A stretch of DNA of 64,000 bases from a virus (taxonomy: Duplodnaviria; Caudoviricetes), in the IMG/VR virus record IMGVR_UViG_3300013383_000028, positions 1-64,000 of that record; one strand, 5' to 3'. Every line of letters starts with the position of its first letter. Within the stretch, counting starts at the first letter, position 1. Positions 15,401 to 61,085 of this stretch are shown in pieces. A program made the position numbers and the translations under genes. A model generated the notes under the pieces. It was given only the letters and a program-made list of their open reading frames with translations, had not been told where the DNA came from and searched no databases.

Positions 15401-15714
15401 TAATGGAACATATTGTACAGTTTGGCATCAATATCGATGACGAAGCAATCAAACGTACCGTGATGGAAAGCGGCGTTAAGACTATCGAAGCGCAGATCAA
15501 ACAGGCAATCATCAATGAGGTGTTTAGCTCTTACCAATACAGAGACGCGAACCCTGCAAGTGACCCACTATCGGCATGGGCGCAGAACATCGTAGCGGAA
15601 CTGCTTGAAAATAACCGGGAATCGATTATCAGACAGGCGGCGGCAATCCTCGCAGATAAGATGGGGAGAAGCACAAAAGTCCGTGAAGCGGTCATCGCAA
15701 AGGCGGCAGAATGA
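15397..15714 (+). CDS. Hypothetical phage protein
   Basis: GGAGG RBS; coupled. Confidence 0.65.
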   Translation: MIMEHIVQFGINIDDEAIKRTVMESGVKTIEAQIKQAIINEVFSSYQYRDANPASDPLSAWAQNIVAELLENNRESIIRQAAAILADKMGRSTKVREAVIAKAAE

Positions 15715-16067
15715 AGCGTGTACACATTGTAGCGTTCCCACCGTTTGAATCCGAATGGAGCGTAATGCCATACTTCTGCGAGACGGAACATAAAACCGGA
15801 GACATTGTGAAGATAACACCGAAGGAATGTGGAGAGCTGAAATATATTTTCACCGACGAATCTCATGATGTAGTATACCCGGCTGAAGGCCCCATTCCGG
15901 AAGAAACCGATAGCTTTCCGGCAGGAAAATACTACAGGGTGTATTGCTTGGATGAGATTTCATTGCTGTGCAGCAACATTCCACTCAAACTGGATGGTTT
16001 TGTTGAGAGATACACTGATGGGGCATACATTTACGAAAGTAAGAAATGGGGGCCAATGTTGTGGTAG
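15711..16067 (+). CDS. Hypothetical phage protein
   Basis: ATGA coupling. Confidence 0.6.
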   Translation: MKRVHIVAFPPFESEWSVMPYFCETEHKTGDIVKITPKECGELKYIFTDESHDVVYPAEGPIPEETDSFPAGKYYRVYCLDEISLLCSNIPLKLDGFVERYTDGAYIYESKKWGPMLW

Positions 16068-17492: not shown

Positions 17493-17693
17493 ATGAGCGA
17501 TCTTAAATACTGCCCGTTCTGCGGTGGGGAAGTCGAGGAACGGGGTGGAACCTGCAACTATTGCAAAAAGATCATGACGATGGACGTGAAATGCCAGAAG
17601 TGCGAGACGACCTTTAAGTTTAAGCACAAATGGGAGATCAATCCATACGTTGAAACCGTGGATGCGTGGAATAGGAGGGCTAATGATGGATAG
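17493..17693 (+). CDS. Lar-family protein 2
   Basis: LKYCPFCGG...CQKC...AWNRR. Confidence 0.75.
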   Translation: MSDLKYCPFCGGEVEERGGTCNYCKKIMTMDVKCQKCETTFKFKHKWEINPYVETVDAWNRRANDG

Positions 17694-17862
17694 CCTGAAG
17701 CCATGCAAGCGGTGTGGGTTGCGATTCGGGAGGCGCATCGAGTATAAGTGCAACAGGCACACATATCGCATATGTTGCCCAAAGTGCGGCTATTGCACAA
17801 AAGAGCAGGATACATGCGAAGAAGCTGTAAATGAGTGGAACAGGAGGAACGAAAATGATTGA
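17683..17862 (+). CDS. Lar-family protein 3
   Basis: LKPCKRCG...CPKCG...EWNRR. Confidence 0.7.
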   Translation: MMDSLKPCKRCGLRFGRRIEYKCNRHTYRICCPKCGYCTKEQDTCEEAVNEWNRRNEND

Positions 17863-18079
17863 AAATCGAGTGTGTTTTACCGTCAAAGGTGAGTTTGGAG
17901 CGCAGATGAGCTTCGAGGCAAATAACACGATCCCTTATGACGATCTGTGCAAGTGTGTCAACAAGGATACGTTGGTTGAGCTGATGTGCCTCGACAGTCT
18001 CGGCTATACCGGCGACGATATTCAGTTCATCACGCCGGAAGAGTACGACGAGCGATTTGGAGACGATGAAAATGAATGA
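17855..18079 (+). CDS. Hypothetical acidic protein
   Basis: GGAGG RBS; ITPEEYDERFGDD. Confidence 0.6.
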   Translation: MIENRVCFTVKGEFGAQMSFEANNTIPYDDLCKCVNKDTLVELMCLDSLGYTGDDIQFITPEEYDERFGDDENE

Positions 18080-18512
18080 CGTCATCATCCCATGCCTGCG
18101 GTGCAGTGTCGATGCAAAGCTGCGTAGATGCGGTGATGGCTACCGCGTCGTCTGTCCCCAATGCGGCCTGAAGGGCGCACGGAAATGCGAAAACGCACGC
18201 GTAGGACGCGGTAAAGCGAAGCAGTTGGCTATCCGGAAGTGGAACCAAATGCAACGCAACATCATTGATGCTGCGATCGAGGCACGATACTGGGGGCATT
18301 TGAAGCCGCCGTTTGGAAATAACTTGTGCAGTTTCATCTACAGAGGTTTTGCCTCAACCGTCAGGTATGACGTTGACGACAATCTGTATGTTGGATGGAT
18401 TGTGGGAATTAAAGACACGGTGGCATTCCACGGCCGGACACTCAACGAATGTGCCCATTCATTCGAAAGGGCCGTGGACAAATATCTGAGGATGATACTG
18501 GAGGAACGGTAA
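18066..18512 (+). CDS. Lar-like Zn finger fused to a HicB-like domain
   Basis: PCLRC...CPQCG...KWN then YRGFASTVRYDVDDNLYVGWIVGIKDTVAFHG...FERAVDKYL. Confidence 0.65.
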   Translation: MKMNDVIIPCLRCSVDAKLRRCGDGYRVVCPQCGLKGARKCENARVGRGKAKQLAIRKWNQMQRNIIDAAIEARYWGHLKPPFGNNLCSFIYRGFASTVRYDVDDNLYVGWIVGIKDTVAFHGRTLNECAHSFERAVDKYLRMILEER

Positions 18513-19327: not shown

Positions 19328-19677
19328 TTGCGAGCATTGACGAAGACCTTGAATCAATGCGGAAAGAAGATGGCAAGCTGCCGGACACGGAGGATGTCGA
19401 TGAATTGCTTCGATTCAGGAGCAAACTGGCATCCGCACCGGAAGCCCCAATTAGGGATTATCGTCCAGAGAACGCACCGTTTGTGACGGCTAACGGCAAT
19501 CCCGTTGGACTTCTGAAAAGCATATGGCCCGATATTACTGAAATTGTAATTTCGACCAGCTACTGCGGATGCGAGTTTGTAAACGGTGAACTTGCATCGG
19601 TAGAAATTCTGAAAGAACCTTTGGATAAATGGGAGGAACGATATGGTAAAGCTATCGACGATTCAAAAGCACAATAA
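19297..19677 (+). CDS. Hypothetical phage protein
   Basis: MDRYINATRLI... N-terminus typical of phage accessory genes. Confidence 0.6.
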   Translation: MDRYINATRLIASIDEDLESMRKEDGKLPDTEDVDELLRFRSKLASAPEAPIRDYRPENAPFVTANGNPVGLLKSIWPDITEIVISTSYCGCEFVNGELASVEILKEPLDKWEERYGKAIDDSKAQ

Positions 19678-20002
19678 CCCGCACGCCATCCTTCGGAGTG
19701 ATAACGAAGGACCCGGAGGTGGCTATCACGATTACACTGTGATGGATGTGGACAGAAAAAGTGTGATTACACAGATAAAATTTCAGAAAGGCGCTCGAAA
19801 CGACCCGAATGCGCGTCACGGTGTTTTGGACGCTGACCTTCTGGAAGTTGTGCGCGACAGGCTGACGGCTTTCAACAAGGGTGAGTTTGCCACGCGGGAG
19901 AACGCCTGCGCGATCACGCATATTGAAGAAGCCCTCATGTGGATGGCGAAACGCGCCGATGACCGGGCAGAGCGCGGCGTGCTGGGGACGTATAACAAAT
20001 GA
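19643..20002 (+). CDS. tad1: Tad1-family anti-defence signal sponge
   Basis: KLSTIQK, GPGGGYHDY, IKFQKGAR, HGVLDADLLEVVRDRL, RENACAITHIEEALMWM, ERGVLGT closely match Tad1 as recalled. Confidence 0.9.
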   Translation: MVKLSTIQKHNNPHAILRSDNEGPGGGYHDYTVMDVDRKSVITQIKFQKGARNDPNARHGVLDADLLEVVRDRLTAFNKGEFATRENACAITHIEEALMWMAKRADDRAERGVLGTYNK

Positions 20003-21816: not shown

Positions 21817-23688
21817 ATGGCGAGACGTTACGGTAAGGCGTGGGCGCCGGGCCTACAATCATAAGGCGTTGGATGGATAAGTAAACGCGAAGTTGAACAA
21901 CGCGATTACAGCAACTTTGAAAATGATTTTTGGTGTCTTCTGATTTGGGTCGGAAGATTCTTCCCAGATATCCTTGCGGATGTGCTCCGCGCCGATGACG
22001 CGGACTACAAGACACTTGAAATTGTGCAGCGCGTCATGCTGCGTGCAAATGCGCGGTATCAGGACGTGGCAATCACGGGAACCCGTGGACTGAGCAAGAC
22101 CTATTCGGAAATGCTTGGCGAGGAAATCAATGGTGTCGTTTGGCCGGGTACGAGAGTCCTGTATACTGGTCCGGCACTAAAGCAACTGTCGGATATTGGA
22201 AGCAAAACACACGCAGACTTGGCAAAAAGCTATCCGTGCATTACAAAACACTGGCGCATTGCGGCAGAAAGTAAAGACGATTTCAAAATCACGACGGATT
22301 ATGGGTCATCCTTCTACATAGGGGCAAAACGTGGCGACAACCTTCACGCTGTTATCGCAGAAGAGTTTGCGCAGGAAGAACAACCGGCCTTTGACTTCAA
22401 TGAATATACGACGGTCGCGCTTCCTGCCGTTCGATTGGCGCATAACGTAAACGGTGAGAAGGACGAAAACTTCGTAGCGTATAAAAACCACTCGATCACC
22501 AGCGCAGGGAGAAAGCAGAATCACGCATTCTTGGTTCGCTGTGAAGTGAGAAAAGGGATGCGGAACGGAGACAGCAGCTTCCAAATGGATGTCCCGTATC
22601 AATGCGTAATCCTTCAACAGATGCGTCCCTACTCATGGGCACAGAAGCTGAAATCGAAGCTTACCCCTGAACGCTGGATGCGTGAGATGGAAAGCCGGTA
22701 CACCGGCGCAGATGAGTATCCGATCATTTCAGATGAGAGCCTTTCCGAGAGTTGCTGCTTGCAGAGCATGGAACGGCAGCACTGCTGCAAGTATCCCGGC
22801 TGCAGGACAGACCCGAAGGACGTCATATACATTGTCTGCTACGACGTTTCCTATGAGGATGCCAAGAAGAATGCAAAATGCGCTGTTGGCGTTTGGAAAC
22901 TCACTAAACAGGAAGACTTCCTCAAGCGAGACAGATACCTGAAACAGCTCGTGTGGCTGGACGATTGGCCACCACCTGATAATGCCATGAAGCAAGCACG
23001 CCGGTTGAAAGACGTATGGTATCGATTCTGCTTTGAAGGCGGAAATACTACGTATATCGCAATCGACGGCTGGCAATACGGCAAGGCCGTCATCGAAGAC
23101 CTGATGAAAGACCTCGGCGATGGATTGCCGCCACTGTGCATCTTAGACCACACAGAGTACACAGCGCTGGAACTTGACGGTGCACTTCCAATCATTTATC
23201 CGATCAAGGCCGGCGGCAGTGGTGTCACCGACCCGGATGCAGAGATGATCAGGTACGCGCAGACGCAGTTCGATAACCACAATGTGCAGCTTCTCACAAT
23301 GAACACCCGTGAGGGCGTAGAAGCGTACAAGCGGCTTCATAAGATCAAGGACGATGATCTGGATTATCAGATTGCACGGCCATATCAAAAGACCAGAGAA
23401 CTGTCTGGACAGATACAAAACCTGAAGGCCGTGCCGTCAGGCGCTGGTATCAGCGAGAAACGAATTTCCCGCGCAATACAGAGAGACAGCTGGTCGGCAA
23501 TCAAGTACGGACTGCGGCTCTCACAGAAGCTGGAACGTGAGCTTGCGTTGAGCGAGGTCAAGAAAAAAAGCGACTGGGACGCAGCTCTTTCAAAATATAA
23601 AGGCATGGACACCGTTCGCAACGTCGGTGGAAGACAGAATGCGGGCGGACGAATGGTGACGCAGAGACGCGGAGGAAGGATATTCTGA
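21817..23688 (+). CDS. terL: Terminase large subunit, interrupted by an in-frame TAA at 21862-21864
   Basis: Walker A GTRGLSKT, Walker B VIAEE, ITSAG, nuclease YDVS and IAIDG, RDSWSA; the frame extends from 21982 upstream to ATG 21817 with one TAA. Confidence 0.88.
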
Positions 23689-24068
23689 TGGCTGAAGAGA
23701 AGGTTTATCGGTTGTATGCTCTGCGGGTTACGCAGGAATCCGTTGAAACGGCCATGATGGCGCGGTTCAGCAGAATCGCACCGGGATACATCCTGATTTA
23801 TACGGCCGGTGAACAGCCGAAGAATAGCCTTGAAGTAAAGGGCGATGACGTAAACCGTCTTTCCAAAGCCGATGAGGATTGGATCATGTCATGTGCGGCG
23901 GCGCTCCTGCGGGAACGGCTGAAAAAAGAAAAACCGCAGACGATGGAAAATCTGAGCCGAATGGTAGACCAATTTGCGGCAGCGCTGGAAGCCGAACGAG
24001 AGAAACTTGGCGGCACAAATGAGAAGGGAGCAAAAGACCATGGCGATAGAGACGAGCGAACTCAGTAA
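23688..24068 (+). CDS. Hypothetical protein between terL and portal
   Basis: Coupled ORF. Confidence 0.65.
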   Translation: MAEEKVYRLYALRVTQESVETAMMARFSRIAPGYILIYTAGEQPKNSLEVKGDDVNRLSKADEDWIMSCAAALLRERLKKEKPQTMENLSRMVDQFAAALEAEREKLGGTNEKGAKDHGDRDERTQ

Positions 24069-25791
24069 GCTTCAATATGAGTCTTTTCCCGAGATCTTTA
24101 GCCGATTTCGCAGACTCGCGGCAGAAAATCAGGGCGTGCCGATGGCATCCATCACGTCTGCATTTTCTGGGATAAACTCTGGCCGGTACGGAATGGCGAA
24201 TCCGTACATTCAGAACCGGCGTGTCAAGCAGATATCCTCCTTGCCAGTCAATTTCACCAAGGATAAAGTCGGTGAAATGTTGACAAAGCCTTATGAGAGT
24301 GAACAGCCGCTCCGGCAGGTGGCGCATATCCTTGAGTATACGGCATACCCGCTTTTCCATATTCGCAAAGTCTATCAGGAAATGTTGACGTATCACAGCT
24401 ATGTGATACCGAAACTGGTTGACTCGGCCGATACCAAAAAGGACGAGTTCATGCGGGAATGGAAGCTGCTCGAGAAACTTCGCGAAGCGTTCAATCCAAA
24501 GGAAACCGCGCACCAGATCGTCGGGCAGGTCGGCGTAGAAGGAAAGGTTTTCTACTATCCGAGATACGGTGTCGACAAGAGCCACAACAAGGTCAACTAC
24601 GCATTCATGCAGCAACTGCCGAGTGACTGGACGAAGATTACTGGCTACAACAGCGTATCAAAGTACACGGTTGCATTCAACATGATGTACTTCCTGCAGC
24701 CCGGATGCGTACCGGAACAGTTTGGAGATCTGTTTACTCCGTATCTGTATGATTTCAGCAGCGTTGTGCAGAAGCCGAAAGGCGTCGGATCGACAATGGT
24801 CTTCGCGCAGAAGACGCGCGTTGATATGCAGAAATTCCAGCGCATCCAAGCACAGGGCGATATGCCGGGAAAGCCGGATGTCTATTACCAGAATGGGCGC
24901 TGGTACTACTGGGTGTACCTGCCGGCAGATGAAGTCTTCACCTTTGAAGCTGATGATGTGAGCCGCACGGCGATTTCGCCGTTTGCAGGACTGTTCCTGA
25001 ACATGATCCAGCTCGCGCAGATGGAACAGATCCAGTTGGAGTTGATTCAGAACCCGTTGGTGAGCATCTTGCACGGCGAGATTCCATACCGAGACGAGAA
25101 AACCGCTACTAGTGATGACCAATACAGACTGAGTAACGCCGGAAGATTGTTCTTTGAAGCTGTCTGGTACGACATGCTTCAAGCGGCCAACACATCTGGC
25201 ATAGGCCTTTTCATGGCACCGCTTCAGTCGATGAAACTTGAATCCTTATCCGAAGCACCTTCCGCAATGGACATCGTGAAGCAGGGCTACAGCGATACCA
25301 TGAGCCAAGCCGGTATGGGCGCAATCATCCCGCTTGGAGACGATCCGAAAGCAGGCACCGCGCAGATCTCGCTTCAGATCGAGAGCAAGTTCATGCAGAC
25401 GGTCTATCGGGGATATGAGCGGATGATGAATGCGATCATCAAAAAGCTCAATCTCAAGTATGATTGGAAGTTCGTCATATTTGGCGATATCTCGGAAGAC
25501 GAAAAGATGCTCGAACGCTGCATGAAGGGCATGGAGCACGGCATTCTACCGGATACCATCATATACAATGCCCTGCTTGACCGGTCGATTCTCGATGATA
25601 TCTGTCTGTCCGACGCGGTATACAACAGCAATATCCTCGACAAGCGTATGCCTCTGATTACCTCGTATAGCGCGTCTCAGGACAAATCCAATTTGCCGCC
25701 GCAGAGTCCCGGACGGCCGAAAGGTGACGGAAGCGCCACAACTGACGGCAGTGAGACCATGATCGATCAATACGGAGGGACAAATGACTGA
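24040..25791 (+). CDS. Portal protein (SPbeta YonE-like position)
   Basis: About 580 aa after TerL; C-terminal PGRP motif. Confidence 0.75.
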   Translation: MAIETSELSKLQYESFPEIFSRFRRLAAENQGVPMASITSAFSGINSGRYGMANPYIQNRRVKQISSLPVNFTKDKVGEMLTKPYESEQPLRQVAHILEYTAYPLFHIRKVYQEMLTYHSYVIPKLVDSADTKKDEFMREWKLLEKLREAFNPKETAHQIVGQVGVEGKVFYYPRYGVDKSHNKVNYAFMQQLPSDWTKITGYNSVSKYTVAFNMMYFLQPGCVPEQFGDLFTPYLYDFSSVVQKPKGVGSTMVFAQKTRVDMQKFQRIQAQGDMPGKPDVYYQNGRWYYWVYLPADEVFTFEADDVSRTAISPFAGLFLNMIQLAQMEQIQLELIQNPLVSILHGEIPYRDEKTATSDDQYRLSNAGRLFFEAVWYDMLQAANTSGIGLFMAPLQSMKLESLSEAPSAMDIVKQGYSDTMSQAGMGAIIPLGDDPKAGTAQISLQIESKFMQTVYRGYERMMNAIIKKLNLKYDWKFVIFGDISEDEKMLERCMKGMEHGILPDTIIYNALLDRSILDDICLSDAVYNSNILDKRMPLITSYSASQDKSNLPPQSPGRPKGDGSATTDGSETMIDQYGGTND

Positions 25792-25963
25792 ATTTGTTAA
25801 ACAAGAAGACCTCCACATTATCAACAGGGCGCTTAATAATAACAGAGATATAAGGATACAACGCACGAAGGACGGTTATCGTATTGTAGAAGACGCGGTA
25901 AAAGTCCTTGTGAAGCGTGATATTGCAAAAAACTCTCCCATCCAAGTCGAAGGCCTGCGCTGA
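25784..25963 (+). CDS. 59-aa protein (not in the ORF track)
   Basis: GGAGG RBS; MTEFVKQEDLHIINRAL... Confidence 0.55.
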   Translation: MTEFVKQEDLHIINRALNNNRDIRIQRTKDGYRIVEDAVKVLVKRDIAKNSPIQVEGLR

Positions 25964-26012
25964 TGCGTGGGGTATTGATTTAGGCGAAGCTGGGAGCATA
26001 TAGAGACACCCA

Positions 26013-26080
26013 CACCGGAGTAGCGGCGTGGAAGAGCTAGTGGAGCTAACGACACAGAAATGTGCCGTTAGCTCTTTTTC
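26013..26080 (+). ncRNA. Conserved dual-hairpin attenuator, copy 1
   Basis: CACCG-GAGTAG-CGGCGTG, GAAGAGCT-AGTGG-AGCT, terminator GAGCTAAC...GTTAGCTC-TTTTT. Confidence 0.7.
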
Positions 26081-26105: not shown

Positions 26106-26639
26106 ATGGCTCGACTGAAAGAACGGTTTGATTTTGAAAACGGTGCGCTTGCGGCTGTGAGAGATGCCGCAAAGGACGTGACCGGCACGTATCAGGATGC
26201 CGCTCGTGGGCTGGATACGCTGAAAGAATGGGTTCTGATTGAACTCGGAATGCCGAATACTGCTGACAAAATTCACAAACTGGCTCATCTTCAAGCTCAT
26301 CGCTTCGATGCCGTCGGAGACCTACTGCACCAGCGTCATATTCTGCAAATCTACCCTGCAACCGCTGAGTACGACGGCCGGCCTGATGATCTGGACGGCG
26401 TATTTGAGTCCATCATCGACATGCTGCAAAAGATCGAAGACACGCTCCGCAAATGCGTGGAAGTCTGCGATGAAAACGGACTTTATCCGCTTGGCCGTGG
26501 CTTTGAGAACCTGCAAATGGAGAACAGCGCCAGCTATGAGAAGTTCCTGTATGCGTGGCAGATGTACTCCGAGCATGAAATGAGCGCGACCAGTTTTGAT
26601 GGATGGATTGAAGAACTCTTCGAGGGAGAGGGTGACTGA
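26106..26639 (+). CDS. Ferritin-like four-helix-bundle protein
   Basis: Helical, His/Glu-rich (KIHKLAHLQAHRFDAVGDLLHQR; ENLQME); GGAGA RBS. Confidence 0.55.
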   Translation: MARLKERFDFENGALAAVRDAAKDVTGTYQDAARGLDTLKEWVLIELGMPNTADKIHKLAHLQAHRFDAVGDLLHQRHILQIYPATAEYDGRPDDLDGVFESIIDMLQKIEDTLRKCVEVCDENGLYPLGRGFENLQMENSASYEKFLYAWQMYSEHEMSATSFDGWIEELFEGEGD

Positions 26640-42206: not shown

Positions 42207-42228
42207 CAAACCTAATATTGTCTAACCT

Positions 42229-42300
42229 GTGCCGAAATGGCGGCACAGAAGAGCTAATGGAGCTGTGAACGCAGGAGAACTGCGTTTGCGGCTCCTTTTG
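42229..42300 (+). ncRNA. Conserved dual-hairpin attenuator, copy 2
   Basis: GTGCCG-AAATGG-CGGCAC, GAAGAGCT-AATGG-AGCT, fully paired 16-bp terminator stem plus TTTT. Confidence 0.7.
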
Positions 42301-43214: not shown

Positions 43215-44345
43215 ATGATTCGTTTTACTGATTCCCGTCTTTATGCAAAAGGCATCGGCGAAGCAATCTGCACCGATAAGACTACCGGCCAGATTCTGTA
43301 CTTCTCCAACAAGTTCCAGACCGGTAACGTGACGCCGAGCGTCACCATCGGTGAAATCCGCGCCGGTCTTGGCAACGCTATCGCGACTACGCTTCCTTCC
43401 GACGCTTCCGTCAACGTAGAGTTCACGGCGGCTGACTTCAACCTGTGGGCAAAGGCCGCGCAGATGGGCGCAATGCTCCGCCACAACGCGCCAGTTATGG
43501 TTTGCCAGACCGTTACCGCTGATGGCACATTGCTTTCCATCGACATCACCGAGGGTACGCCTGTCGCGCAGAAGGGCTTCTCCAAGATCTTCTGCTATGT
43601 ACAAGAAGTCGGTGCTGCTTCTCCGATTGCGACCGGCGGCGTATCTTACGACCTGAACCCGACTACCGGTGCAGTCACTGGATTTACCGCGACGTCCGGC
43701 AAGACCTACAAGGTCTTCTACTTCGTCAACAAGGCCACTGCACAGATCGCAACCATCACCACGGCAATGGACCCGAAGGTCGTTCACTTCATCGCAACGG
43801 TTGCGGTCTTCTCCACTGCTTCCGGCTCCGCACAGAACGAGGGCACTCGCGTTGGTACGCTGTACATCATCATCCCGTCTCTGAAGTTCGGCGCGAACGG
43901 CGGCGTCACTGGCGACCAGACCAGCAACGATACTACGTCCCTGTCTGGTCAGGCAATCGCGTATGACCCGGATGTCATCACTGACGGCTGCGATGAATGC
44001 ACCGGCGCAGGCAGCGACCTTGCGTACTACATCTACCAGCCGTGCGGCTCTGGTGTTGAGGAAATCGAGGGTGTCGTTGCCAGCATCGGCGGCATTTCTC
44101 TCAAGGCGTCCTCCACCTATCAGATGCAGCCGCGTATCGCCATGAAGAATGGCGAGCTGGTCAAGGGTGACGCGAATACCTTCACCTACACTGCGACTGG
44201 CGCTCCCGAGGGCACGACCGTTGGTGCAAACACTGGCCTTATCACGGCCGGCGCTACTGCCGGTGACTTCACGGTTGAGGTCAGCTATACCGCAGGCGAG
44301 TCCACGTTCAAGGACACCTGCGAGGTCGAGGTCACTTCGGCCTAA
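43215..44345 (+). CDS. Major tail tube protein with C-terminal Ig-like domain
   Basis: 376 aa, biased codons, EIRAGLGN motif, C-terminal TCEVEV. Confidence 0.75.
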   Translation: MIRFTDSRLYAKGIGEAICTDKTTGQILYFSNKFQTGNVTPSVTIGEIRAGLGNAIATTLPSDASVNVEFTAADFNLWAKAAQMGAMLRHNAPVMVCQTVTADGTLLSIDITEGTPVAQKGFSKIFCYVQEVGAASPIATGGVSYDLNPTTGAVTGFTATSGKTYKVFYFVNKATAQIATITTAMDPKVVHFIATVAVFSTASGSAQNEGTRVGTLYIIIPSLKFGANGGVTGDQTSNDTTSLSGQAIAYDPDVITDGCDECTGAGSDLAYYIYQPCGSGVEEIEGVVASIGGISLKASSTYQMQPRIAMKNGELVKGDANTFTYTATGAPEGTTVGANTGLITAGATAGDFTVEVSYTAGESTFKDTCEVEVTSA

Positions 44346-58287: not shown

Positions 58288-58467
58288 ATGATGGCTGAAA
58301 AGAAGGCTGCGCAATACATCCTCAAACTCAAAACGGGAGAAATCTTCGATGTGAAGAAGGAAACGAACCTGTACTGGATCTGCGAAGGTACGCAGTTCAA
58401 AAAGACAAGCAGGCAGATCGAACGTGTGACACGGCGAAAAGCCAGAAAGGGCGTAAACGATGAGTGA
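58288..58467 (+). CDS. 59-aa basic protein (not in the ORF track)
   Basis: GGGGGTG RBS; MMAEKKAAQYILKLKTGE... Confidence 0.55.
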   Translation: MMAEKKAAQYILKLKTGEIFDVKKETNLYWICEGTQFKKTSRQIERVTRRKARKGVNDE

Positions 58468-58609
58468 GATTGGTCCCGTCCTCAACAACCATGGAGCAAA
58501 ACCGTGCAGCTCATTCACCGACACAGCATACGGAATCAGCGCCTGTATTCATTTCTTCTGTGGTAAGTGGATTCCACCTCCCCATGCAGACTGCGCAACA
58601 ATTGAATAA
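58460..58609 (+). CDS. 49-aa Cys-containing peptide (not in the ORF track)
   Basis: Overlaps the previous stop; MSEIGPVLNNHGAKPCSSF... Confidence 0.4.
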   Translation: MSEIGPVLNNHGAKPCSSFTDTAYGISACIHFFCGKWIPPPHADCATIE

Positions 58610-58615
58610 TCCCCG

Positions 58616-58690
58616 CACCGAAGTGGCGATGTGGAAGAGCTAGTGGAGCTACAAGCGCGAAGTGAAGCCGCGTTTGCGGTTCCACTTTTG
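58616..58690 (+). ncRNA. Conserved dual-hairpin attenuator, copy 3
   Basis: CACCG-AAGTGG-CGATGTG, GAAGAGCT-AGTGG-AGCT, 17-bp terminator stem plus TTTT; 21 nt identical to copy 1. Confidence 0.7.
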
Positions 58691-59314: not shown

Positions 59315-59536
59315 ATGAAGAACAGCTGGTGGCAGGTCATCGTCGAGAACCTTTTTAAGGTCAAGTCGCTCGTAACGATCATACTCACAGGCGCATTTGT
59401 CGCAATGGCACTTCGCGACAAGGTAGAACCAAAGGACTTCTATTCCATCATCGTGATGGTGCTGACGTTCTACTTTGGCTATCAGAGTGCCAAGAGCGAA
59501 GACAAGAACAGCACACAGAACGACAGTCAGGAATAA
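59315..59536 (+). CDS. Holin
   Basis: Two TMs, VKSLVT...VLTFYFGYQ; precedes the endolysin. Confidence 0.7.
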   Translation: MKNSWWQVIVENLFKVKSLVTIILTGAFVAMALRDKVEPKDFYSIIVMVLTFYFGYQSAKSEDKNSTQNDSQE

Positions 59537-59567
59537 GGCTTCAGCCTCGCAAAAGGAGGAATATCAA

Positions 59568-61085
59568 ATGACAACCCAAGAAGCAAAGAAAAAACTGCTC
59601 GACATTGCGTTAGCTGAAGAAGGCTATCTGGAAAAGGCGACAAACTCAAACCTGGATAGCAAGACAAGTAACGCCGGCAGAAACAACTACACGAAGTATG
59701 CCCGCGACCATGCGCAGTGGGGGACATATCATGCCCCTAAACAGGGTCTTCCATGGTGTGATATGTTTGTAGACTGGTGCTTTATCAAGGCGTTTGGACT
59801 TGCACTCGGCATGAAGACAACATGTCAGCCAAAGGGCGGCTATGGGGCTGGTTGTACAGAATCGTATAACTACTATAAAGCCGCAGGGAAGGCCGTTCCT
59901 GTCGCAGAAGTGCAGGAAGGCGACCAGATCTTCTTTGGCAAGCCCGGAAGCATGACGCACACTGGCATCGTGTATAAGGTCGATAATGCGCGGATCTATA
60001 CCATTGAGGGGAACACCAGTTCCGGAAGCAACACTGTGATTGCGAATGGCGGCGGCGTTTTCAAAAAGTGGTACTACAGAAATTCTTCCTCCATCGGTGG
60101 AATTGGCCGTCCCAAGTGGGACGTGCTTGGCAGCGAAGATTCTAAGCCCACTACGTCAACTTCTTCAACCCCAACGACAGTGAAGTATTCTGAGTTCCAA
60201 GGTGGCATCTTCGCCGAGATCCCGTTTTCCCGTATTGACCGAATTGAGCATATCAAAATGGCAGACGCGAGAGGGGAAACAACCGGCAGTGTTGCAATTC
60301 GCGCTACATGGAATGACAGATTCCCCGATATCGTCATCAATGCAGAACTATTCAACTATGGCAAGTACACACCTGCATCCGGCGTGAAGCACAAGGGCAC
60401 AATGGAGTATCAGGGATGGCAGCCGTTCATCGGCTTCAAGGACTATAAGACACCCATCCAGGAGGCCCGTGGAGCCGTCACGTCGCCCGATGCGGTCGGC
60501 GGCTACCCCGCTATGATACAGAACGGCGTGAAGGAATTTACGGTCCCCAAGGGCCTTGAGGGCAATAAGTACCGGACGGCCATGGGCTTAAAGGGCAAGA
60601 CGCTTGGTATCATCGTCACGGAGAAACAGGTTCCGATGGATGTCGTAGCAAACAAGTTCGTCGCTGAGAAGTACGAATTTGCAATCAACCTTGACGGCGG
60701 AGCTTCCAGCAGCTACGTCACACCGACAGCCGCTTGGGCACGCCCCAATAAGCTTCGCGGATTCGTGGCGATCTGGCTAAAAAGCGGTACAGGTAACTAC
60801 CTCAGTAAGCGTCAGTATGGCAATCATGCCGTTCAGCCGAAGCCAGTGAAGTCGGAAAGCTGGATTGAAACGGATAAATCTGCAGCTAACGGCGTAAAGA
60901 TGAAGGTCACGGCCAGCGAACTGAACCTTCGCGCTGCCGCCTCCACCAGCAGCGAAGTCCGGTTTGTCCTGAAATACGGTGAAACGGTCACATGGTACGG
61001 ATATCAGACGAAGAGTTGGTACTATGTCAGAACCGTGTCCGGCAAGGAAGGCTATGTCTACAAAGCCTATGTGAAGAAGGTATAA
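59568..61085 (+). CDS. Endolysin: CHAP + phosphodiester-glycosidase-like + SH3b
   Basis: PWCDMFVDWC, HTGIV, IEGN (CHAP); INAELF, RTAMG, NLDGGASS (NAGPA-like); LNLRAAAS...WYYV (SH3). Confidence 0.85.
   Translation: MTTQEAKKKLLDIALAEEGYLEKATNSNLDSKTSNAGRNNYTKYARDHAQWGTYHAPKQGLPWCDMFVDWCFIKAFGLALGMKTTCQPKGGYGAGCTESYNYYKAAGKAVPVAEVQEGDQIFFGKPGSMTHTGIVYKVDNARIYTIEGNTSSGSNTVIANGGGVFKKWYYRNSSSIGGIGRPKWDVLGSEDSKPTTSTSSTPTTVKYSEFQGGIFAEIPFSRIDRIEHIKMADARGETTGSVAIRATWNDRFPDIVINAELFNYGKYTPASGVKHKGTMEYQGWQPFIGFKDYKTPIQEARGAVTSPDAVGGYPAMIQNGVKEFTVPKGLEGNKYRTAMGLKGKTLGIIVTEKQVPMDVVANKFVAEKYEFAINLDGGASSSYVTPTAAWARPNKLRGFVAIWLKSGTGNYLSKRQYGNHAVQPKPVKSESWIETDKSAANGVKMKVTASELNLRAAASTSSEVRFVLKYGETVTWYGYQTKSWYYVRTVSGKEGYVYKAYVKKV

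Follow-up and report, generated by a model that had tools for sequence, protein, structure and literature searches.

The described systems closest in plan to the elements reported here are the targets of the ANTAR proteins (EutV, AmiR, NasR), which consist of tandem hexaloop hairpins, the second of them mutually exclusive with an intrinsic terminator. The loops are read by a dimeric protein, and several such sites may follow one another along one long operon, as do the four in eut (PMC3369931, PMC8934654). ANTAR target hexaloops have A as their first and G as their fourth nucleotide, the linker between the two hairpins measures ~5-12 nt, and a linker of 3 nt abolished EutV-dependent induction (PMC3369931). 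The systems of BglG/SacY/LicT with RAT, HutP, PyrR and TRAP resemble the present elements in that a protein stabilizes or prevents a terminator-overlapping RNA structure locally at each site; they differ in their targets, which are a single RAT hairpin or UAG/GAG repeats, in their unrelated protein folds, and in being controlled by metabolites or the PTS (PMC12591593). The same review of Firmicutes RNA-binding (anti)terminators mentions no phage system (PMC12591593). Phage-encoded devices that pass terminators for the ordered expression of later genes are represented by lambda N/nut and Q/qut and by HK022 put, in which the polymerase is made processive and terminator-resistant at one loading site. 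The putL and putR hairpins of HK022 bind RNA polymerase in cis and confer terminator resistance without a protein factor. To our knowledge, regulators of the lambda N/Q type and of the RinA/ArpU type largely fail to explain how late genes are switched on in temperate phages of gut Clostridia, which are abundant.

The RNA motif gut-2 is an orphan of the screen of Weinberg et al. 2017, whose main text does not mention it (PMC5737381). Its Rfam entry (RF02990) is a 48-nt model typed as 'Gene; sRNA', carries no function and stops before the terminator described below. A literature search found no paper giving gut-2 a function (the string 'RF02990' occurred only in unrelated use), and a search on phage antitermination with tandem hairpins returned nothing relevant. 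Here we describe three copies of gut-2 in a phage genome, together with a linked microprotein gene. The DNA analysed (the window; 64,000 nt) corresponds to positions 1-64,000 of an IMG/VR virus record of 82.9 kb (IMGVR_UViG_3300013383_000028). On the comparative sequence evidence, we put at about 60% the probability that these elements are microprotein-dependent, ANTAR-like antiterminators acting site by site at three sites, by which the expression of the head, tail and lysis genes would be self-timed.

The three elements lie on the + strand at 26010-26079, 42227-42299 and 58613-58689, where the first-pass annotation had seen them. That annotation had taken them for an RNA family not yet described and had named an Rfam match among the findings that would refute its reading; copy 2 (42224-42270) proved to be gut-2, with 47.5 bits against the RF02990 covariance model, above the gathering score of 39.8. 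In local searches with the same model, copy 1 scored 25.8 bits (E=8e-4, model positions 1-48) and copy 3 scored 30.5 bits (E=5e-5, full model), both below the gathering score. The structural features of gut-2 (8-bp P1, 4-bp P2, AAUUGG-like hexaloops and the AAG join) are present in the model alignments, by which all three elements are copies of this family. They share with RF02990 the two hairpins, the AAG linker and loops of the AAUUGG type, and differ from it in that the Rfam model, typed as an sRNA, has no terminator; the terminator and the partner are additions of the present analysis. New with respect to Rfam are thus the overlapping terminator, the setting in phage late operons, the microprotein partner and a variant class with AAGCGU loops. 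A strict DNA pattern made from the Rfam consensus (GAAGGNCCAATNGGGGNCC) gave four matches in viral contigs, all of them in coding DNA without P1 and therefore false.

All copies follow a common plan of hairpin P1, an AAG linker, the 4-bp hairpin P2 and an overlapping intrinsic terminator; the sensor parts (P1 to P2) were delimited by alignment to RF02990 and, for copy 1, also by folding. The sensor part of copy 1 (26010..26047, + strand) comprises P1 (26010-26017/26024-26031, loop GAGUAG), the linker (26032-26034) and P2 (26035-26038/26044-26047, loop AGUGG); it is followed by terminator 1 (26042..26079, + strand), the stem of which (26042-26075) overlaps the loop end and 3' arm of P2, with a U-tract to 26079. 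In copy 2 (sensor part 42227..42264, + strand) P1 is formed by 42227-42234/42241-42248 (loop AAAUGG) and P2 by 42252-42255/42261-42264 (loop AAUGG); terminator 2 (42259..42299, + strand) has its stem at 42259-42295, followed by the U-tract, and was assigned 16 pairs, nine of them G-C, by a terminator scan. Copy 3 (sensor part 58613..58650, + strand) has P1 at 58613-58620/58627-58634 (loop AAGUGG), P2 at 58638-58641/58647-58650 (loop AGUGG) and terminator 3 at 58643..58689 (+ strand; stem 58643-58685, U-tract 58686-58689). P1 is 8 bp long and in copies 1 and 3 contains a mismatch; the P2 loops in the window have 5 nt, one deletion relative to the Rfam model. The loop consensus first given, RARTRG/ARTGG, reflected loops that are indeed shared, but these are better described as R-A-N-Y-G-K hexaloops. 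With up to three mismatches allowed, the window contains exactly three occurrences of a 17-nt core, GAAGAGCTARTGGAGCT; 0.22 would be expected by chance, and none of 100 shuffles gave as many as three. The 21-nt string GTGGAAGAGCTAGTGGAGCTA, said to be common to copies 1 and 3, was read from both sequences.

Folded in full context, each copy forms P1 and a long hairpin ending at the U-tract, the 5' arm of which is built, as previously suggested, on GGAGCU, which combines the 3' arm of P2 with the end of its loop; RNA cut before the terminator 3' arm folds as P1 and P2. The predicted energies of the terminator stems are -20.1, -29.3 and -23.6 kcal/mol for copies 1, 2 and 3, compared with -1.9 kcal/mol for P2. 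All three sequences have the make-up of intrinsic terminators, a predicted stable, G+C-rich hairpin directly followed by UUUUU, UUUU and UUUU, respectively. The distance from the end of the U-tract to the ATG is 27 nt for copy 1 (ATG at 26106), 39 nt for copy 2 (42338) and 32 nt for copy 3 (58721), which bears out the earlier remark that the elements stand close before start codons.

The loops were tabulated from a structure-only scan without any loop requirement, which yielded 50 unique elements. Position 1 is A in 92% of the P1 loops and A or G in the P2 loops (G 58%); position 2 is A in 96% of both; position 3 is G in 84% (P1) and 76% (P2); position 5 is G in 94% (P1) and 96% (P2); and position 6 is G or U in both hairpins. 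At position 4, P1 has U or C in 49/50 elements and G in 1/50, and P2 has mostly U or C (A in 3/50, G in 1/50). The conserved loop positions are thus A2 and G5. The linker has 3 nt throughout and reads AAG in 80% of the 50 elements.

Compared with ANTAR targets, the elements agree in architecture, with dual small hairpins of which the second overlaps the 5' base of an intrinsic terminator. The loops of the 50 elements do not follow the A1/G4 rule, since position 4 is Y rather than G (R-A-N-Y-G-K versus A-x-x-G-x-x), which confirms that they lie outside the ANTAR register, as had been noted from the three copies; the linker is also outside the ANTAR range (3 nt versus 5-12 nt). No match to the ANTAR domain (PF03861) was found at E<=10 in six-frame translations of the window's record and of four other gut-2 phage records. 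These data bear on the possibility of a real switch worked by a factor of the host, for example an ANTAR regulator or some other conserved RNA-binding protein of Clostridia; the late genes would then be tied to host physiology, and the microprotein would have some other task. Dual hexaloop hairpins with the second overlapping a terminator are indeed the architecture of ANTAR substrates (PMC3369931), the loops are conserved over phages that have almost no other proteins in common, as for a conserved host partner, and all identified hosts are Oscillospirales. A host ANTAR regulator is opposed by the pyrimidine at loop position 4 (G in only 1/50) and by a linker of a length that abolishes EutV-dependent induction, and any host factor leaves unexplained the gene-RNA adjacency, the strand bias and the correlation between loop and protein residue described below; we consider this explanation unlikely.

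IMG/VR pattern scans detected orthologues of the elements in about 15 related contigs and in unrelated phages with a GC content of 30-55%. An overlapping terminator, i.e. a hairpin starting in the P2 loop or 3' arm and ending at a U-run, is present in 78 of the 80 unique elements, the two exceptions being false pattern matches in coding DNA; the terminator was never used as a criterion when the 80 elements were collected. The median predicted energy over the family is -29.7 kcal/mol for the terminator versus -3.6 kcal/mol for P2 alone. To assess covariation, 25 diverse members were aligned with MAFFT without fitting to any structure, and from this alignment RNAalifold predicted P1 and the terminator base. 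Pairing in it amounts to 98% for P1, 100% for P2 and 93% for the terminator base, and double changes are seen in 7/7, 3/4 and 5/8 pairs, respectively; all pairing and double-change measures are far above shuffled and slid controls, with the reservation that part of the RNA set was gathered with pairing or loop filters, which inflates some of the pair counts. The same columns of the P2 3' arm covary with both of their alternative partners, the P2 5' arm and the terminator, as is expected of a two-state switch with mutually exclusive structures.

This overlap also bears on a put-like mode of action, in which binding of P1 and P2 to RNA polymerase in cis would render the enzyme terminator-resistant independently of any factor. 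Two adjacent stem-loops just before terminators in a phage operon would suit such a mechanism, as would the failure to find a partner from a known RNA-binding family. Yet a put-type RNA needs no overlap between P2 and the terminator, while both the overlap and its covariation are conserved; the terminators would moreover be pointless unless otherwise regulated, and the linked microprotein would have no explanation. We therefore rate this alternative as very improbable. Each gut-2 terminator has its own overlapping sensor, which sets the elements apart from the lambda and HK022 devices and implies local, non-processive action. In several other phages gut-2 and its terminator stand directly 5' of a tRNA gene instead of a protein gene (L106:596-720; L134:3191-3320; L147:529-650; L272:1612-1866; L158, at 15685-15732 of record G005, minus strand); the gate can thus also stand before phage tRNAs.

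The early region of the record contains an integrase-size gene and Rha/YqaJ/RecT/SSB genes, and a function search of the window's early genes (PHROG, Pfam) returned nothing. The late region is a long + strand stretch with portal, virion structural proteins and a CHAP/NAGPA/SH3 endolysin; most of the structural genes have no Pfam match. The three elements divide it into packaging/portal genes, head-region genes, tail-region genes, and small genes with the endolysin. The portal gene (23974-25791, + strand, phrog_2739) lies upstream of copy 1. Behind terminator 1 are a 177-aa gene at 26106 and then head-region genes of 470, 193 and 407 aa; behind terminator 2 are tail-region genes of 277 and 376 aa and a 1732-aa gene of tape-measure size, the stretch 43215-44345 matching virion structural phrog_2729; behind terminator 3 are two small genes (101 and 96 aa) and the endolysin (59475-61085, assigned by its domains). 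Since terminase and portal are located upstream of the first gate, control of the 'late genes' would be only partial. At the terminase position, a 568-aa ORF with a GTG start (21982-23688) has no Pfam match and only a partial match to a PHROG without assigned function. The 340-nt 'gap' before copy 3 contains two ORFs, 58288-58467 (59 aa, preceded by the SD-like GGAAGGGGG) and 58460-58609 (49 aa), both unrelated to the microprotein family.

This arrangement has to be weighed against a simpler explanation, namely that the elements are constitutive terminators, 3'-end modules or an sRNA, with P1 and P2 serving mRNA stability, processing or autoregulation of the microprotein. The Rfam typing of gut-2 as 'Gene; sRNA' fits this view. 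Downstream of the terminators, however, are essential head, tail and lysis genes, with no recognisable promoter in the gaps of 27-39 nt, so that some read-through is required; nor does a plain terminator need a selected P2 that is mutually exclusive with it. The evidence on autoregulation is given with the linkage data below, and taken as a whole this explanation appears improbable.

Copy 1 is correctly placed, but the preceding stretch, which had been called intergenic, holds an overlooked gene (P0001; 25784..25963, + strand) that lies between the portal gene and copy 1 and whose translation is a 59-aa microprotein. The ORF has a GGAGG ribosome-binding site 7 nt before its ATG and ends 44 nt before copy 1. 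An HMM of the microprotein family, built from 148 representatives, has this ORF as its single match in the 82.9-kb record (E=3.5e-12). Proteins of the family have 40-60 aa and fall into 991 clusters when grouped at 90% identity and 592 at 50%, none of which bears a name or a Pfam domain; ORFs of 43-59 aa share a motif made up of a helix (..I..AI..IL..G) followed by ..VEI....DG..VV.E.K. In the AlphaFold2 model (pLDDT 83) the window's protein forms a helix (residues 7-18) and a beta-hairpin of two strands (22-28 and 31-37). No match was found in Pfam, NCBIfam, PHROGs with a function or PDB sequences; Foldseek of the model against the PDB gave nothing significant (best E=1.3), a wide VIA-align search gave no usable match (best Z=3.2 among designed proteins; MinE domain Z=2.4), and the ESM Atlas returned unnamed clusters only (score 0.8). 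Neither the sequence nor the fold searches revealed a recognisable RNA-binding fold or family. The window's own microprotein found no relative in bacterial genome contigs. The named hosts of family relatives are all Oscillospirales (Lawsonibacter, Oscillibacter, Acutalibacter, Butyricicoccus, Neopoerus), and relatives are present in the isolates Acutalibacter sp. 1XD8-36 and Neopoerus faecalis CMD_1836.

The association of RNA and protein was determined in both directions. Starting from the RNA, five whole records of diverse gut-2 phages were compared with the window phage, and one ORF matching the family HMM was found in each genome (6/6), 0-600 nt upstream of an element; in one of the six the match is the C-terminal domain of a 218-aa protein. 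The five other phages have essentially no proteins in common with the window phage (blastp, phmmer), and all-against-all comparison by blastp and phmmer gave no protein common to all six; the clusters dropped in this comparison were generic similarities (XRE HTH, generic and Lar-like zinc ribbons, integrases). The 218-aa fusion (L169:5390-6046, record G004) combines a zinc-ribbon-like N-terminal CxxC region with the microprotein domain, which might hint at an added sensing or oligomerisation module. Starting from the protein, 93 loci were retrieved by the protein alone (80 viral and 13 from bacterial genomes), of which 89 have a same-strand downstream element in the strict scan and the remaining four have visible variants; none of the 93 has an element on the opposite strand. 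Four further look-ups, all in distant subfamilies, showed this layout again, with P1 overlapping the microprotein stop codon in three of the four. In distant subfamilies the recurrent gene order is portal, Mu-F-like protein, microprotein, element with terminator, scaffold and capsid. The microprotein is thus the only conserved linked candidate for the effector of the elements.

If the elements were DNA operators, P1 would be an inverted repeat bound by the microprotein as a small dimeric, Cro-like repressor or activator. P1 can be read in this way, and Cro proteins are among the weak top rows of the fold search, at non-significant E values of about 1.6-1.8. The stems, however, vary by compensatory changes that include one-strand G-U pairs and the loops are conserved, the opposite of what an operator would show and an argument for recognition as RNA rather than DNA; the orientation is also strictly co-directional with transcription (89 to 0). 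Of the explanations weighed here, this is the least probable, and we give it very little credence.

Tight linkage would also fit an RNA that regulates the microprotein's own mRNA through 3'-end formation, stability or translation. In many loci only 0-16 nt separate the end of the microprotein gene from P1, or the two overlap; the terminated product would then be the microprotein mRNA with gut-2 in 3'-terminal position, an arrangement typical of autoregulation. Against this as the whole explanation, copies 2 and 3 stand 16 and 32 kb from the microprotein gene. A role of the tiny ORF as leader peptide of a translation-coupled attenuator was set aside because its motif is conserved over hundreds of clusters and because P1 may overlap the stop codon or lie as far as 1.6 kb from it. 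Some translational coupling is possible where P1 overlaps the stop codon. In the window, a 7-bp hairpin (CCTGCGC-TGAT-GCGTGGG, 25954-25971) overlaps the stop codon, as P1 does in other subfamilies, so that RNA folding and microprotein translation may be coupled. The segment 25950-25998 has a sub-threshold Rfam match to DUF3800-VIII (24 bits, E=0.022).

Protein and loop sequences also appear to be matched. The residue after the 'IP' motif of the microprotein is T where the loops end in GG and V where they end in GU (the AAGCGU/GAGCGU class). This match resembles co-evolving recognition, but it is a lead rather than a test, since the sequences are related and not phylogenetically independent. 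The loci with AAGCGU/GAGCGU loops (L184 at 2628-2720, L208, L211, L215 and about 30 others) form a sister class in which the 5' arm of the terminator starts with GCGUGGGU; they score 17-37 bits in the model built in this analysis and may fall outside the Rfam gut-2 model.

The reading we prefer is that each element acts as a conditional intrinsic terminator within a long late transcription unit. By default, transcription would stop as the nascent RNA folds into P1 and the terminator of 20-30 kcal/mol, whose stem takes up the 3' half of the loop and the 3' arm of P2; termination is the expected default state because a P2 of 4 bp is unable to outcompete such a terminator unaided. Since its gene lies upstream of the first terminator, the microprotein would be made with terminase and portal before any gate opens. 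We infer that the microprotein then binds, probably as a dimer, to the R-A-N-Y-G-K loops, nearly identical in P1 and P2; the bound protein would keep the weak P2 closed and prevent the terminator from forming, and RNA polymerase could continue. With each of the three sites responding separately, one accumulating small protein would release the head genes at copy 1, the tail genes at copy 2 and the lysis genes at copy 3, and differences in consensus match and terminator strength could stagger the three gates. The predicted alpha-beta-beta microprotein of 40-60 aa differs from the ANTAR proteins in having no receiver or sensor domain, so that it would respond to its own accumulation and not to a metabolite. 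The protein-switched, site-by-site antitermination put forward in the first-pass annotation has in this way been strengthened by the exclusive, covarying P2 and terminator, by a linked candidate protein, and by the lack of an ANTAR domain match in the five phage records searched and of ANTAR-type loops; what has been given up is the undescribed RNA family.

For the wider family we lean, a little less firmly than for the three sites in the window, towards the view that gut-2 and the 40-60-aa alpha-beta-beta microprotein together form a class of RNA-binding antiterminator that has not been described before and is widespread among the phages of gut Clostridia (Oscillospirales), in which loop and protein specificity (G/U at position 6, T/V after 'IP') co-evolve. 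If this is true, the microprotein would be the smallest known sequence-specific antiterminator and, with its targets, a self-contained genetic timer for virion assembly and lysis. A multi-site cascade of local antitermination run by one protein of 5-7 kDa would be a new solution to the control of phage late genes. An orphan RNA motif from human gut metagenomes would gain a function, and a role would be given to unannotated phage microproteins in about 600 clusters at 50% identity. The natural classes of loop and protein specificity would be attractive as orthogonal transcription gates.

Two further loci in the window were recorded. Three small zinc-ribbon ORFs with the motif 'WNRR/WNQM' are arranged in tandem at 17493-17693, 17684-17862 and 18057-18512; they are Lar-like (weak match to PF14354, E=4.8e-4), and one of them has a relative in another gut-2 phage (G002, 35444-35647). 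A 119-aa ORF at 19643-20002 strongly matches phrog_2428 and falls just short of the cut-off for the Acb2/Tad1 hairpin domain (PF24729, 25.8 versus 27 bits); it may encode a nucleotide sponge directed against CBASS or Thoeris.
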